DNA of 63,977 bases, counting the filler, from an uncultured Acidimicrobiia bacterium (GTDB lineage Bacteria > Actinomycetota > Acidimicrobiia > Spongiisociales > JAOTWH01), in the NCBI GenBank assembly GCA_964347285.1. It is 7 parts of 7 records of this genome, joined end to end, with 100 filler letters (N's around TTAATTAATTAA, not from the genome) between each part and the next. Parts side by side here need not be neighbours in the genome. Positions count along the whole stretch, not along the records: positions 41,000 to 50,496 come from CAYFYE010000093.1; 6 more parts are not named here. One strand, 5' to 3'. The notes below the pieces were generated by a model. That model worked only from the letters and a program-made list of their open reading frames with translations. It was not told where the DNA came from and searched no databases. How positions within the stretch are numbered: position 1 is the first letter of the stretch; the number at the start of each line of letters is the position of its first letter. A program made the position numbers and the translations under genes. Of this stretch, positions 43,002 through 52,325 are shown one piece after another.

Positions 43002-43517
43002 CTAGTAGTCGAACGGGATGAGTTCGCCGCCGTGGCCGATGAGGAACACGTCCAGTTGCGACCAAGCGGCCGGGTCGCCACCCATCCCCGGTGAATCGGA
43101 CGGCATTCCGGGCACGGCGATCCCCACCGCATCGGGCCGCTCGGCGACGAGTCGGGCGATCGCTTCAGCGGGCACATGACCTTCGACGGCATAACCGCCG
43201 ACGAAGGCCGTGTGGCACGAGGCCGCCTCCGTTGGAATGCCCAGGTCGTTTCTCCTTTGCTCGAGGTCGGGATCGGCTTCCGCGACGACCGTCGCGCCGT
43301 GGTCGCGCATGTACGCGGCCCACTCTTCGCAGCAGCCTCAGCCAACCGCGTGGTGGATCTCCACACCGAGCCCGCTCAGGTCGGCCTCGTCCAGTTGCGT
43401 CGTTGGCGTTGTGTCGGCGGAGCCATTGCTACCGCCGCAGCCGGCGACGGCCAGCACGGAGCCGATCAGCAGGATCCCGGCCGCCCATCCGGCGTGGGAC
43501 CGTCGATGTCGATGCAT
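43002..43517 (-). CDS. DUF411 metal-binding lipoprotein with in-frame TGA (UGCC; candidate selenoprotein)
   Basis: Lipobox AVAGC; EIHHAVG-TGA(43338-40)-GCCEEWAAYM...SCHTA...VEGHVPA...GIAVPGMPSDSPGM all in one frame. Confidence 0.85.
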
Positions 43518-43871
43518 ATCGCGTCCTCGTGACTTGCGATGCACCGAGTCTGTTTATCGGCACGGGCCACGGGTAGGGCCTAAGGTCCCCTAAGGGACGC
43601 CCCATTGGGCGGACTGCTCCGAGCCATCTTCGTCGCGGGATCTCGTGAGACGTTGCTGGTCGACGCAGCGCCCGCATCGGAAACCGCCCTCACGAATGTC
43701 ACGAAGAGCCGATCTCCCTATCTGCGGCTTGGTCGGCAAGGCGGAAGGGGGCGAAGGGTGACGCTTCGACGGCTTCGTGATGCCCCGACCCTCACCGGTC
43801 CCACCGGCACGGCACCACCCACGGCTACGGCTACGGCTACGGCCGACGTTGTGAGACCTCCGCCGCACCCC

Positions 43872-45563
43872 TCATTGCACCTCTCGCCGTCCCTCCTCCG
43901 GCGGGACCCAGATGCGTGCCTCGGAAGCTCCCCGTTCGATGATGGAGAACCGGTTCCGTTCCACGTCCACCCACGGGCCGATCTCTCCGTCCGGCCACCG
44001 GACCCGGACCTCGGCCCCGTCGGCCGTCGCCAGTCCGAAGTGGATCCATCCGAGCTGTCCTCCAGCATGCCCGCCGCCGATCGTGAGCTCGCGTCGAGTG
44101 GTGCCGTCGCCCGTCCTCACCTCGATCCAGGCTCCGATGGCGTCACGGTTCGCACCCGGCTGCGCCAGGCGCAGCGCAATCCAGTTGCCCATCGGCTCGG
44201 GATCGGTATCGATGCCAAACCCGACATTCCGCCACAACCGGACGTTCTCACGGCGGTTCACCTCGACCAGGTCGAGCATGCCGTCGAGATTGAAGTCGGC
44301 CAGGGCGGCGCCCCGGCCCCGTCCGAGGCTGAGAATCCCGGCGGATCGAGCGCTCTCGGTGAACGTGCCGTCCGGATTGCCCAGCAGCAAATTGCTGGGG
44401 TCGTCGGCGGCGTAGTCGGCCTGAGCCTCGACGTTGCCCTTGGAGATGAAGAGGTCGACCAGGCCGTCGTTGTTGACGTCCTGGAACTCCGGGTGCCACG
44501 CGGTGGAGGGCTGCACCTCGTCGCCCACGAACGGGCGATGAGCGGTGACGCCTCGTCGGATGGCGATGTCTCCGTACGTAGGCCGTGAGGGGCCTTCGAC
44601 CAGGGTCTGCAGCTTGTTGTCGCCCTGGCTCGTCAGGAACACCTCGGGAAGCTCGTCACCCGTCAGATCCTGTGTGGCGATGCCCATCCCCCAGATCTGC
44701 ATTGCCTCCCAGCCGTCGGCGTCGGAATAGAGGCGCGGTGGCTCGCCCTCCTCGATGCGCCACAGCTGTTCTCCCCCCTCCAGGTAGTAGTGCCGGTCGT
44801 TGGTCATGCGCAGGTCGCGCCGGCCGGATGCGTTCCAGTCGCCGAAGAGCACCGAGAGGGTGCACAATCCGGGACTCAACTCTGTCGGTGGGCCGTACTC
44901 CCTCCCATCGGCGGCCGGTCGAAGCAGCTCGCTCGGGGCACAGGTGCGGGCCGGCTCGCCCGCCTTGGGGATGTTCAGGTAGTTGCCGAACGCCAGGGTG
45001 GGGAGGCTCGCCGACCCCTCCCACGTGGCGCTGAAGGCGGCCGTCCACTCCCGTCCGCCCTCCAACAACAGCTGCTCGTTGGCCCGCTCGAACCGGCAGT
45101 CACCGCGCCCTCGCAGGAGCACATTTTCCCCCACCCGGAGCACGGCGATATCGATGAGCCCGTCGCCGTCGATGTCGAGGGGATACGCCCCGGCCACCCC
45201 GGTGAGGTCGGTGACCGGATCGGACACCGGCGAAAAGCGCAGCGCCCCACCGACCGGGCTCTCGTTGCGAAAGAGACCGGCCGGGTTGGTGCCGCCGGCG
45301 AAGTAGAGGTCGGGCTTGCCGTCGTCGTTGCAGTCGAACACGGCCACTCCACCGCCGACGAAGAACACGAACTCTCCGTCGTAGGCATGACGGATTCCAG
45401 ACGAGGACGTCTCCTCGACAAAGCGCGGCGGACTCACCGTCTCCGGATCGTCTGAGGCCCAGAGCTCGGTGGCCAGGAAGAAGACGCCGCTACCGGCGAG
45501 GATCCCGGTCGCGAGACCGCCGGCGAACCACCCCCACCTCGCCCTGCCGCTTCGCGGGTTCAT
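43872..45563 (-). CDS. CRTAC1-like FG-GAP/VCBS repeat + ASPIC/UnbV protein
   Basis: DCNDDGKPDL, DIDGDGLID, DVNNDGLVDL, DFNLDGMLDL; NRDAIGA...IHFGLA...VRWPDG; ATGA overlap with the upstream gene. Confidence 0.88.
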   Translation of the reverse strand: MNPRSGRARWGWFAGGLATGILAGSGVFFLATELWASDDPETVSPPRFVEETSSSGIRHAYDGEFVFFVGGGVAVFDCNDDGKPDLYFAGGTNPAGLFRNESPVGGALRFSPVSDPVTDLTGVAGAYPLDIDGDGLIDIAVLRVGENVLLRGRGDCRFERANEQLLLEGGREWTAAFSATWEGSASLPTLAFGNYLNIPKAGEPARTCAPSELLRPAADGREYGPPTELSPGLCTLSVLFGDWNASGRRDLRMTNDRHYYLEGGEQLWRIEEGEPPRLYSDADGWEAMQIWGMGIATQDLTGDELPEVFLTSQGDNKLQTLVEGPSRPTYGDIAIRRGVTAHRPFVGDEVQPSTAWHPEFQDVNNDGLVDLFISKGNVEAQADYAADDPSNLLLGNPDGTFTESARSAGILSLGRGRGAALADFNLDGMLDLVEVNRRENVRLWRNVGFGIDTDPEPMGNWIALRLAQPGANRDAIGAWIEVRTGDGTTRRELTIGGGHAGGQLGWIHFGLATADGAEVRVRWPDGEIGPWVDVERNRFSIIERGASEARIWVPPEEGRREVQ

Positions 45564-47428
45564 TCGCTCTCCCCGTAGTAGCGCTGCGCCTCGGCCCAGG
45601 CCGCCCTCCCCACGGCTGCCCCCATGATCCGTCCCTGCAGATCGTCGGCCCTGACGTGGATTCCCCCGTAGAGCCGCGACAGCCCGGCCTGATCGGCGGC
45701 ATCGGCGTACGTCGCCCACTGCAAGACGACGTCCTCCGTAGGTCCGGCCTCGAATTCCAGTGACCCGGCCGGGATCGTCCATTGCCCCAGCCCACCCGGG
45801 AAGAACTCGCTCCCTGTGAAGCCGGCAAGCACCTCGGCAGAGGCACGACTGAACGTGCTGTGGCCGGAGACGTAGCCGGCGAACGAGGGGGTGACAAAGG
45901 TGGGCAGCTGATAGGGGACCCAGTCCACCGCCCGGATCCACTCGACCCCGCCGGTCTCGAGAATGGGGTCTGCGGGCGTTCCAGTCCACGAGCGCACGGC
46001 GATCTCATCCTCGTGTCCGCGGAGCTGCTCGTGGCGGCCACCGGGGGCGGTGGTGGCGTCGGTGACCTCCTCGACCAGGCCCGGGACGAGGGGCAGTCCG
46101 TCGGGGTGATAAGAGAGAGACTCGAGGTCGCTGGACTGGCCCAACCCTCCCATGTAGCGAATCATCGAGATCGGACGGGCGTAGTCGTAGTAGCCCTTGG
46201 CTCCCCAGGCGGCGACGGCGGCATCGTGATTCGCCCCATTGAGCGCCAGGTACAGCTTGACGTCCCACTCGAGCCGGTCGACGACGGATCCGGCACCGCC
46301 GATTCTCAGGTCGGGAGCCAGCTCATCCGAGACGACGTTGGCAATCGCGTTCCAGTGGCCGGGCGGGGTCTCCGAGTTCGGACCGTCGGCCCAGAACTCG
46401 GCCAGGACCCTGCCGAAATCGGCCTGGTTGACGAGATTGGGTGGGTAGGGGTCCCCGGTCACGGGATTGACCGGATGCCCGTTGCCCTCATAGGAGCCGA
46501 GGGGGGCGGCGCCGAGCGCTGCCGGCGAGACGTCGATCGTTATCCCGGCGCCCGCGTCGAGCAGGCTGCTGTAGCGGATCACCTCGACCGCGGATTCCTT
46601 GAAGGCCTGGTCCGAGTCGAGGTCTCCCAGATACGGTGGGGGGCCGGGGTCGATGGGCAGGCCCTCGGTCCCGCCGCCGGGCAACGCGAATCCGGCGACC
46701 CGACCCCAGTGGGGGCCGATGAAGGACTGGAGACCGCCCTCGATCGGTATCTCGTTTTGGGAGACCATCTGCTCGATCTGCAGGGGCTGCCACCGGTTGG
46801 GATCGGTCATCGTCGTGCCGGGAGCGGCGACCTCCAGTGGAGCATTGACCGGTTCATAGTCGGGGTCGACGTAGCCGCTCGCTTCGTTCGATCCGTCCTC
46901 CAGTCCAGCCGCAAAGACCGCCGCGGCGATCCGGTTGCCGAGGGCGGCGGGCGCAGGGCCATCGGTCGTGATGATGTCGACCGGGTAGCACAGCGACGCC
47001 ATGAGATCGTCGAACTCGGGGATGGAATCGGAGGCTCCTGCCGAGCCGAGGTAGCGGTGTTCGAGCACCCGGTAGGCGGCATAGCTGATGGCCTCGTTGC
47101 GGGCCGCCTCCACATCCGGTGCCGTGTGCTCCTCGGTGACGAAGTAGCCGGTGGCGTTCGGCTCGTAGGCGGCCCAGGCATCCCACATCGCCGCCGACGT
47201 GTGGAACAGGTTGCGGGCGTGGACCGTGGGTGCGGGGAGATCGCGCCGGATGGCGTTCAGGAGGCTCTCGTTCCATTGCCGGGCCACCGACCACTCGGGG
47301 TGGCTCGGGTCGGGGTCGCACGCGGACTCACTCCAGGCGCGTGACAGCGACAATCCGCCGACGGCGAGCACGAATCCGAGAAGTGCCCCCACCCCCATCG
47401 CCGTAGGTTTCGATCGCATGGTCGCCAT
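45560..47428 (-). CDS. Vanadium-dependent haloperoxidase/PAP2 superfamily protein, secreted
   Basis: AKGYYDYARP, PSFAGYVSGHSTFS, SRLYGGIH vanadate/phosphate motifs; PTVHARNL N-domain; signal peptide. Confidence 0.85.
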   Translation of the reverse strand: MATMRSKPTAMGVGALLGFVLAVGGLSLSRAWSESACDPDPSHPEWSVARQWNESLLNAIRRDLPAPTVHARNLFHTSAAMWDAWAAYEPNATGYFVTEEHTAPDVEAARNEAISYAAYRVLEHRYLGSAGASDSIPEFDDLMASLCYPVDIITTDGPAPAALGNRIAAAVFAAGLEDGSNEASGYVDPDYEPVNAPLEVAAPGTTMTDPNRWQPLQIEQMVSQNEIPIEGGLQSFIGPHWGRVAGFALPGGGTEGLPIDPGPPPYLGDLDSDQAFKESAVEVIRYSSLLDAGAGITIDVSPAALGAAPLGSYEGNGHPVNPVTGDPYPPNLVNQADFGRVLAEFWADGPNSETPPGHWNAIANVVSDELAPDLRIGGAGSVVDRLEWDVKLYLALNGANHDAAVAAWGAKGYYDYARPISMIRYMGGLGQSSDLESLSYHPDGLPLVPGLVEEVTDATTAPGGRHEQLRGHEDEIAVRSWTGTPADPILETGGVEWIRAVDWVPYQLPTFVTPSFAGYVSGHSTFSRASAEVLAGFTGSEFFPGGLGQWTIPAGSLEFEAGPTEDVVLQWATYADAADQAGLSRLYGGIHVRADDLQGRIMGAAVGRAAWAEAQRYYGESE

Positions 47429-47672
47429 AGCTCGGCCGCTCTCACCTCTCCGGAGGGGCATCGTATGGACACGGGTGAAGGCTCGCGGGAGTCGCGGCGC
47501 CACAGGACTCCGGCACCCCTGGGTCGACCGGAATCGTAGTGCCAGGGGCGGTGGAGCAGGCGGGTGTCGGCCGATCACCCCCGGACCTCAGGCGCCCTGA
47601 AGTGTGCCAACGCCACGCCACAGTCGGTAGAGCTGGCCCCGCTGCCGAGCGCACAACCTAACCTGGCTCACC

Positions 47673-50596: not shown

Positions 50597-52190
50597 CCGG
50601 TTCGGTGAGGCCGTAGACGTCGGGGCTGATCTCATAGGCGTTGGCCTCGAGGTCGAGGGCAGACTGCCGGGCGTCCGCCAGCTCTTCGGCGTCCAGCAGG
50701 CCGACCGACACCAGCTCGAGCTCCTCCTGGGTCTCGTCCTCACCGGCCCAGCCCACCTGCACGTTGCCGATACCCGGTGCGAAGTACTTGAGCTGCACAG
50801 CCCCCGGCTCTTCGACGTTGAACTCGTCGATGACGAGGACGTCGCTGTAGCAGTCGGCCTCGACACAGGTCTCGGCGCCCACCTCGGCCACCCGGCCCCG
50901 GTCGTTGAAACCTACCTCGGGACTCCACCCCTGTGAGTAGCTGAGGGTGCCGACCACGGGGTCGGCGAGCATCGAGATACCGGCTTTGGCGCCGTTGATA
51001 CCGGCCAGCCAGGTGGGGGCGTCGACCAGCTCGCCGTCCTCGAATTCCTCGGGATGCTCGCCCATGCGCCAGACGTTGCCGTCGTTGTCCTGGGCGAAGA
51101 ACGCCAGCTCGGCTTCGACCAGTTCGCCGTCGCTGAAGTCGAGATCCCACGACACCACGGTGTTGATCCCGTCGATGACCTTGGTGAGGTCGGTGACGGT
51201 GATGATCACTTGATGGTCCAACAGCTCATTGTCTTCGTTGGTGATTCCTTCGAACACCAGTTGGGTGCCGGGGATCAGCGGCAGGTACGGGTTGTCGATC
51301 TGGGTAGGGTTGTCGAAATTGTCGTAGTCGAACGCACAACTCGGCCCGTCCAGGCTCGAGCACAGCGAGGACGCTGCTGCGGCCGGGGGCGCCTGCGTGG
51401 CCACCGCCGGTTCGGTGAGGCCGTAGACGTCGGGGCTGATCTCATAGGCGTTGGCCTCGAGCTCGAGGGCGGCCGCCCTGACATCGATGAGCGCGCCCGG
51501 GTCGAGCCGCTCGAACCACACCAGCTCGAGTTCCTCCTGGGTCTCGTCCTCGCCGGCCCAGCCCACCTGCACGTTGCCGATATCCGGTGCGAAGTACTTG
51601 AGCTGGCGGGCGTTGGGCTCATCGACGTTGAACTCGTCGATGACGAGGACGTCGCTGTAGCAGTCGGCCTCGACGCAGGTCTCGGCGCCCACCTCGGCCA
51701 CTTGGCCCCGGTCGTTGAACTCGACCTCGGTGGACCATCCCTGGGAGTAGCTGAGGGTGCCGACCACGGGGTCGGCGAGCATCGAGATACCGGCTTTGGC
51801 GCCGTTGATACCGGCCAGCCAGGTGGGGGCGTCGACCAGCTCGCCGTCCTCGAATTCCTCGGGATGCTCGCCCATGCGCCAGACGTTGCCGTCGTTGTCC
51901 TGGGCGAAGAACGCCAGCTCGGCTTCGACCAGTTCGCCGTCGCTGAAGTCGAGATCCCACGACACCACGGTGTTGATCCCGTCGATGACCTTGGTGAGGT
52001 CGGTGACGGTGATGATCACTTGATGGTCCAACAGCTCATTGTCTTCGTTGGTGATTCCTTCGAACACCAGTTGGGTGCCGGGGATCAGCGGCAGGTACGG
52101 GTTGTCGATCTGGGTGGGGTTGTCGAAGTTGTCGTAGTCGAACGCACAACTCGGCCCGTCGGCCAGGCTGCACAGCGACGATGCGGCGGC
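50597..52190. repeat. 810-bp intragenic tandem duplication
   Basis: Sequence at 50597 recurs at 51407; long identical stretches with a few variable patches. Confidence 0.92.
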
Positions 52191-52325
52191 CGACGGTGGC
52201 TCGGGCGCTGCGATCGTGGTGGCAAGCGTGGGCAGCGTGGTCGTTTCCCCCTCGGAGCTGGTTCCGCACGCCGAGAGCACCAGCAAGCAGGCACCCACAA
52301 TGGCCCCGGTTTCGAGACGCCGCAT
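50597..52325 (-). CDS. Acidic lipoprotein with tandem 270-aa domains (partial)
   Basis: Lipobox VLSAC; two near-identical units NPTQIDNPYLPL...AQDNDGNVWRMGE...VYGLTEP. Confidence 0.85.

Follow-up and report, generated by a model that had tools for sequence, protein, structure and literature searches.

A probable selenocysteine-encoding variant of the CopG/DUF411 family in Acidimicrobiia

The closest described relatives of the protein analyzed here are two exported members of the same Pfam family (PF04214, DUF411), namely, CopG of P. aeruginosa (structures 6WIS and 6WJE; Hausrath et al. 2020, as presented in PMC7558416 and PMC8456105) and CutG of R. capsulatus. In the consulted sections of these articles, CopG is described as holding a four-copper cluster via a CxCC motif and two Met residues, with a proposed role in Cu(I) oxidation (PMC7558416, PMC8456105), and CutG as having a minor role in copper tolerance (PMC8456105). 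Two groups of selenoproteins are pertinent as well. In UxxC selenoproteins with the thioredoxin fold (Trx, Grx, TlpA and DsbA/DsbG-like; PMC13188914, Table 1), selenocysteine (Sec) takes the place of the first Cys of CxxC at the start of helix 1, and the UGA is followed by a hairpin. In predicted metal-resistance selenoproteins (the SO_0444 Cu/Zn transporter, an E1-E2 ATPase with UxxC and a CopZ-like (2Fe-2S)-binding protein; PMC13188914, Table 1), Sec is located at a likely metal-binding Cys. The bacterial SECIS model places the hairpin 16–37 nt from the UGA and requires a G within the first two nucleotides of the loop (PMC13188914, section 5).

The gene described here belongs to the genome (90.5% complete) of an uncultured Acidimicrobiia bacterium (GCA_964347285.1), contig C93, and lies within the window, by which we mean the whole 63,977-nucleotide stretch of DNA that was analyzed. 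Its predicted product shares with CopG the predicted fold (TM 0.84, 37% identity), the position of CxCC, the S-C-H and G-H-V-P motifs and the two Met residues, but differs from both CopG and CutG in having a TGA, the probable Sec codon, in place of the first Cys codon, in the presence of a lipoprotein signal and a spacer, where CopG and CutG are soluble periplasmic proteins, in the actinobacterial host, and in the lack of cop, cus or cutO neighbors. As in the thioredoxin-fold selenoproteins, the Sec codon falls on the first Cys of CxxC at the start of helix 1 and precedes a hairpin; unlike these, the window protein carries one more Cys (U-x-C-C), and a multi-copper site is predicted for it. 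With the metal-resistance selenoproteins it has in common a Sec at a likely metal-binding Cys of a protein of metal homeostasis; the families are unrelated, and none of them is called a multi-copper cluster protein in PMC13188914. In contrast to the canonical SECIS model (PMC13188914), the stable hairpin of the window gene has no G among the two nucleotides that open its loop. Taken together, the evidence makes it very likely that the window gene encodes a Sec-containing CopG, in which the TGA at the first Cys of CxCC is decoded as Sec; the product is a predicted lipoprotein that probably binds copper.

The original prediction had not counted DUF411 among the classical selenoprotein families, and PF04214/CopG is indeed missing from the 119-family table (Table 1) of the 2026 review PMC13188914. 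The consulted parts of the deep-Sep (PMC12013277) and BSepDB (PMC13326102) articles contain no mention of DUF411 or CopG, no paper linking DUF411 with a selenoprotein was found in a search that covered papers other than subscription ones, and among the matches listed for selenocysteine together with CopG, or for DUF411, there was no title on a Sec-containing CopG/DUF411 protein. The CopG variant is real and conserved, very probably encodes Sec, recurs across Acidimicrobiia and is uncatalogued in the sources checked.

The gene and the recurrent TGA column

The minus-strand ORFs 43544–43338 and 43310–43002 lie in one frame with TGA 43340–43338 between them and, as had been proposed, are split by nothing else: reading the TGA as U yields a single frame of 180 codons, from GTG 43544 to TAG 43004–43002, with one internal TGA. 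The likely start is ATG 43517, so that the product comprises 171 amino acids with Sec at residue 60 and the lipobox Cys at residue 27, and is laid out as a signal peptide, a Thr/Gly-rich spacer, the segment H-H-A-V-G-U60-G-C-C-E-E-W and the DUF411 core (Table 1). The remainder of the gene is intact, in agreement with the initial description: the lipobox and the SCHTA, EGHVPA and PGMP motifs are all in place, and the protein matches PF04214 with 89.6 bits against a cut-off of 27 (E 1e-25). The export signal, i.e. the lipobox, is identified by pattern only. In NCBIfam 20.0, neither a CopG nor a selenoprotein model covers this protein, and a scan for sigma-70 promoters found none.

Table 1. Coordinates of the probable Sec-CopG gene and associated features (positions in the window unless a contig is given).
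Feature	Position	Strand	Basis
CopG/DUF411-family lipoprotein gene, 171 codons through one TGA	43002..43517	-	PF04214, 6WIS match, structure model
Shine-Dalgarno-like GAGGA, 6 nt 5' of ATG 43517	43524..43528	-	sequence
Predicted lipoprotein signal peptide, end V-A-G-C (Cys27 at 43439-43437)	43437..43517	-	sequence, loose lipobox pattern
In-frame TGA, inferred Sec60, position 1 of U-G-C-C (UxxC motif)	43338..43340	-	conserved column, model
Further motifs with putative copper ligands: S-C-H (Cys 43217-43215), G-H-V-P (His 43178-43176), P-G-M-P..S-P-G-M (Met 43106-43104 and 43085-43083)	43083..43217	-	alignment
Hairpin starting 15 nt past the TGA, candidate non-canonical SECIS: lower stem GTGG/CCAC, upper stem CGCGT/GCGCG, loop ACAT	43299..43323	-	
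Alternative hairpin TGCGC-GACCACG-GCGCG, excludes the main one; -6.5 kcal/mol, loop starts with G, 34 nt past the TGA	43293..43309	-	
Other Sec codons in the genome: FdhA, TlpA-like lipoprotein (WxxWUxxC), SelW-like, SelD	C22:11924, C18:3472, C37:18542, C9:25764		

The TGA is not an artifact of assembly. Run X1, possibly the source sample itself, contains an almost identical contig that crosses the TGA with 0 differences, and in the second sample X2 of the same study, a contig over 43313–43553 shows 0 differences as well, although on one side it extends just 25 bases past the codon. These contigs rule out an assembly error as the origin of the TGA, and with X2, the check over 43338–40 proposed in the original prediction came out in favor of the TGA.

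The same codon recurs at the same column in relatives. In the class-wide sample, there are matches in 19 of the 301 genomes, and all 13 full-length matches (from 12 genomes) carry the TGA at this column, a count that leaves out one C-terminal fragment and 8 weak matches. In the sample of the host order, 50 places were found in 45 of the 401 genomes, and 47 of these have one internal TGA, the other three being a full-length TGT gene and two C-terminal fragments; in the column check performed on 38 of the 47, the TGA aligned with Sec60 in every case. In one further locus, L216 (G510, contig C97), the site was not recognized by the motif pattern. Among the best 80 of the 222 confirmed loci in the genome-collection scan, 22 have TGA, 57 have TGY and one was unparsed, with all 22 TGA loci within the 25 best (actinobacterial) ones and none in the other 55; among the best 80 of the 418 metagenome loci, the split is 10 TGA to 70 TGY. 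Pooling of the Acidimicrobiia-type clade gives 76 loci that collapse to 72 distinct proteins, 65 with TGA and 7 with TGY (Cys), which are kin rather than independent events. The codon in this column switches solely between TGA and TGY. Accordingly, the expected recurrent TGA/Cys pair was found, with the stop on the first conserved Cys of CGCC. In other classes of Actinomycetota, 6 genomes beyond the window's own were matched among 401, none with an internal stop.

The window's own branch consists of 10 TGA genes (the window gene, L190–L196, L110 and the second copy of G391), intermixed with Cys homologs, as judged from a quick tree, with L196 placed differently in two trees. Close Cys homologs in this branch are P0003–P0007 and P0011, and a nonsense mutation within a Cys branch was considered and dropped once nine more TGA genes of the same branch turned up. 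The broader tree of 140 rows is likewise a quick one, with many open forks.

Outside the Acidimicrobiia clade, two metagenome contigs (L161 and L176) carry a TGA at the same column, with the hairpin GATGTG-GGTC(G/A)-CACATC, whose register differs. That Sec arose independently in these two is not established by the AU test (p 0.382, quick 44-row tree). Several genomes harbor two Sec-CopG copies (G391 contig C8, G238 contig C57 and G390), with about 13 kb between the copies of G391 and 2.5 kb between those of G238.

Copper motifs and genomic context

The only solved relative detected by sequence is CopG (6WIS/6WJE; E 2.5e-23 for 6WIS). A single-sequence structure model of the window protein was poor (pLDDT 54), and the model built from a 54-row alignment, with Cys substituted for Sec, was used instead (pLDDT 96.2); its Foldseek match to 6WIS has an E-value of 3e-10. 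Past 6WIS/6WJE, the next Foldseek match drops to E 0.04, and thioredoxins and glutaredoxins are matched weakly. In the model, residue 60 falls between strand 1 and helix 1, so that Sec60 would occupy position 1 of a thioredoxin-type CxxC.

If the TGA encodes Sec, the CxCC motif of the window protein becomes U-G-C-C. The remaining putative ligands are strongly conserved: in the 54 aligned proteins, the Cys, the second His and both Met are invariant and the first His is present in at least 90%, and the S-C-H, G-H-V-P and Met motifs are found in 76, 74 and 73 of the 76 clade loci, respectively. The gene neighborhoods are less uniform. In a scan of 149 of the 219 crudely called ORFs from 26 loci, a P-type ATPase gene was found next door in 7 neighborhoods (6 TGA, 1 Cys), and a multicopper oxidase, SCO1, CopCD or CtaG gene in 5, with no copper gene adjoining the window copy or any of the 6 scanned loci of its branch; linkage to copper-resistance genes is typical of the CopG/DUF411 family rather than defining. 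The window gene is flanked by a DUF3054 gene and by an FG-GAP/UnbV and haloperoxidase-like pair, and three heavy-metal P-type ATPases are encoded elsewhere in the genome.

Alternatively, Sec may be inserted into a protein that does not handle copper but acts on another metal or as an unspecialized thiol/selenol oxidoreductase of the cell surface. The thioredoxin-like fold with U-x-x-C is compatible with such a role, as is the lack of a P-type ATPase neighbor in 19 of the 26 neighborhoods, those of the window's branch included; conversely, the residues (Cys, His and Met) that are reported to bind copper in CopG are conserved, and copper-specific neighbors do occur in 5 of the 26 loci. We regard this alternative as a minority possibility that deserves to be taken seriously. 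A copper role appears likely for the family and is less sure for the window copy, for which a CopG-like function in copper handling is favored with moderate confidence.

Several observations were made in and around these neighborhoods. Upstream on the same strand, at 43872–47578 (minus), are the vanadium-haloperoxidase-like (DUF6851/VCPO/PAP2) and FG-GAP/UnbV-ASPIC genes, for which no link to the CopG gene was shown. An imperfect palindrome, TTAGGGGACCTTAGGCCCTA, lies at 43593–43574 (minus), about 55 nt before the start; we take it to resemble a DosR/DevR-type operator. A similar core is found upstream of L193 and L110, and the 15-base core occurs, with up to 2 mismatches, at four places in the window's genome, which may hint at low-oxygen regulation. 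In one sub-branch (L012, L017, L028, L029, L037, L042, L046, L048, L050 and L052), twin-arginine-like signals (RRxF) precede the lipobox, a pattern that suggests export of the folded, metal-loaded protein; the window protein has no such signal. Near the Sec-CopG gene of G291, a gene for a small DUF1573-like Ig-fold protein (L011:2383–2793, plus strand) contains an in-frame TGA in an E-D-G-U/C context and precedes a PCYCGC-family gene, making this region a possible selenoprotein neighborhood. Finally, an 800-base direct duplication with 92% identity is located at 50597–52200, at the start of contig C94.

Hairpins downstream of the TGA

In most of the relatives, the signal that follows the TGA is canonical. 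A hairpin of 6 pairs with the loop C-G-(G/U)-G-U, starting 15 nt past the TGA, is present in 56 of the 65 TGA proteins, in 2 of the 7 Cys genes of the clade (both TGT) and in none of the 112 outgroup contexts. In both loop and spacing, the hairpins of the 56 conform to the SECIS model given in PMC13188914, and in PMC13326102, 87.4% of the BSepDB entries are reported to have a canonical SECIS. The constraint on the RNA is apparent in synonymous positions, with Val always GTC and Leu only CTA or CTG in the 56, as well as in the protein, which the hairpin limits to W-V-(G/V)-Y-L at positions where the Cys homologs mostly have Glu, Asp or Ala. The two TGT genes with the canonical hairpin are likely to be recent Sec-to-Cys reversions. 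Whole or most of the canonical SECIS is retained in the TGT versions L035, L036, L120 and L208, with SelB-positive genomes for L035, L036 and L208; these four are likely reversions of this kind.

The window's branch departs from this pattern. The hairpin noticed originally, 15 nt past the UGA with a loop lacking the usual G, was recovered on folding with the same coordinates and loop: the region 43323–43299 adopts it as the minimum-energy fold (-13.3 kcal/mol, loop ACAU), with a stability within the chance range (z -1.53; 17 of 200 shuffles as good). Only 4 of the 6 canonical pairs can form in the window copy, and the stable hairpin buries each G near the loop (for the Gs in alignment columns 25 and 27, the probability of being unpaired does not exceed 0.02). 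The doubt voiced in the original prediction over the G-less loop is thus justified, in that most relatives are canonical but the window copy and its nearest relative, L190, are not. In each of the four other selenoprotein genes of the genome, by contrast, the first two loop nucleotides of the hairpin include a G. The alternative distal hairpin (Table 1), which is weaker, does have a G at the loop start but sits close to the maximum spacing permitted, and all five of its pairs are kept only in the window gene and L190; with no conservation beyond L190 in the alignment, as read by eye, it was rejected as the SECIS of the branch.

Across the branch, 7 of the 9 aligned members form a stem of 7–8 pairs and a 9-nt loop that varies in sequence and in most cases has no G near its start; the window gene and L190 have four lower pairs in common with the branch, a shifted upper stem and the ACAU loop. 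Covariation in the branch stem is weak: in 7 distinct rows, 87.5% of the cells are paired and two pairs are changed on both sides, with 20 of 500 shuffles as good, and at least 7 of the 8 pairs also form in 4 of the 110 outgroup Cys contexts. This longer, mostly G-less stem is possibly a second class of SECIS.

Alternatively, the family could consist of selenoproteins, with the window copy, along with L190, having lost its SECIS and being poorly recoded or decaying. The G-less loop, the 4 of 6 canonical pairs and the existence of Cys forms in the same branch speak for such a scenario. It has to be reconciled, however, with the complete identity of the 25-nt hairpin region between the window gene and L190 despite near-saturation of downstream synonymous sites (dS 1.57), with the intactness and purifying selection of all 10 TGA genes in the branch, and with the presence of SelB in all 7 other branch genomes; we consider decay improbable.

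Decoding of the TGA and its implications

Translation very likely continues past the TGA. In all 66 distinct TGA genes, no further stop occurs in the next 100 codons, and the Gly/Ser, Cys and Cys codons that follow the TGA differ at third positions, with the Trp invariant. Between the window gene and L190, dN downstream of the TGA is 0.19 against dS of 1.57 (dN/dS about 0.12), and each of the 9 gene pairs compared likewise has a dN far lower than its dS; the codons downstream of the TGA are under purifying selection. Upstream of it, the loose lipobox pattern is found in all 76 clade loci.

Were the TGA a true stop, the locus would be either a pseudogene created by a nonsense mutation or a split gene whose 102-aa part is initiated at ATG 43310, and a protein search does indeed return mostly 102–104 aa database products that start just past the motif, one of them an entry named 'DUF411 domain-containing protein [Acidimicrobiia bacterium]'. 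Yet the TGA recurs in one column of 66 distinct genes, Gly-Cys-Cys-x-x-Trp between the TGA and the ATG is conserved as protein, the ATG chosen by gene callers is kept in just 7 of the 66 genes, and the short form would have neither the signal peptide nor the CxCC site. The order-wide count of TGA and the analysis of downstream codons largely refute this alternative, which we deem very unlikely. Because the databases store the 102–104 aa fragments, the family is systematically mis-annotated, with gene callers cutting the gene in two and databases keeping one of the pieces.

The components required for Sec insertion are encoded in the window's genome, in accord with the expectation that selA, selB, selC and selD should all be found: selA and selB are adjacent on contig C14, selD, with its own TGA, is on C9, and the tRNA-Sec gene is on C27. 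The motif-filtered selenoprotein scan of the genome gave 76 candidates, most of them noise, so the additional Sec codons listed in Table 1 represent an incomplete selenoproteome. Extremely unlikely is a reading of UGA as Cys or Trp by an allo-tRNA or a code change, to which the indirect identification of residue 60 and the non-canonical hairpin leave some room, given that tRNA-SeC is the only tRNA with a TCA anticodon found by ARAGORN in this genome, that TGA terminates its ordinary genes and 11 of the 14 homologous frames examined, and that the column pairs only with Cys codons.

SelB scored above the cut-off in 31 of the 37 genome entries, i.e. in 29 of the 34 with the TGA form (one a duplicate) and in 2 of the 3 with the Cys form, and in all 8 additional genomes (the 7 of the window's branch and that of the TGT carrier). 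Of the five TGA genomes without a SelB match, four have a tRNA-Sec hit of 64–67 bits, one of these also with SelA, and the fifth has a marginal 47-bit tRNA-Sec match alone; among 14 control genomes, 5 likewise score above the cut-off of the tRNA-Sec model. SelB is found in 144 of the 301 genomes class-wide and in 65 of the 76 in the host order, a tally that takes in G254, G275 and G212, which are flagged as unpublished. Given how widespread SelB is in the host order as a whole, its co-occurrence with the TGA form is consistent with Sec and discriminates little.

The view of this protein as an exported metal or redox protein that uses Sec is supported by the TGA column, the machinery and the second sample, Sec insertion itself being what we infer from these. 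That the TGA is decoded as Sec is very likely. Under this reading, SelB and tRNA-Sec would place Sec at the UGA under the direction of the hairpin that starts 15 nt further on and that, in this branch, deviates from the canonical form; the protein would then be exported and lipidated at Cys27, becoming a membrane-anchored, outward-facing lipoprotein with the thioredoxin fold. It would bind copper and interconvert Cu(I) and Cu(II), and Sec60 would head a U-x-x-C redox motif that adjoins, or is part of, a copper cluster like that of P. aeruginosa CopG. More tentatively, Sec60 could be a direct ligand of a four-copper cluster, in a surface copper-selenium cluster protein, and SelB of this branch could read a second, G-independent class of long-stem SECIS alongside the canonical elements; we consider this combination a speculative possibility. 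We know of no described example of a natural copper-selenium cluster protein.

If the Sec reading is true, this variant extends the catalogue of prokaryotic selenoproteins, which now numbers roughly 119 families, by one more. With the branch that retains the UGA with a different hairpin, it offers a natural test of the SECIS features that SelB needs. The structure of a copper-cluster protein of this family being solved, the effect of selenium versus sulfur in a multi-copper site becomes directly testable, with Sec, Cys and apparently recently reverted versions existing side by side in nature.
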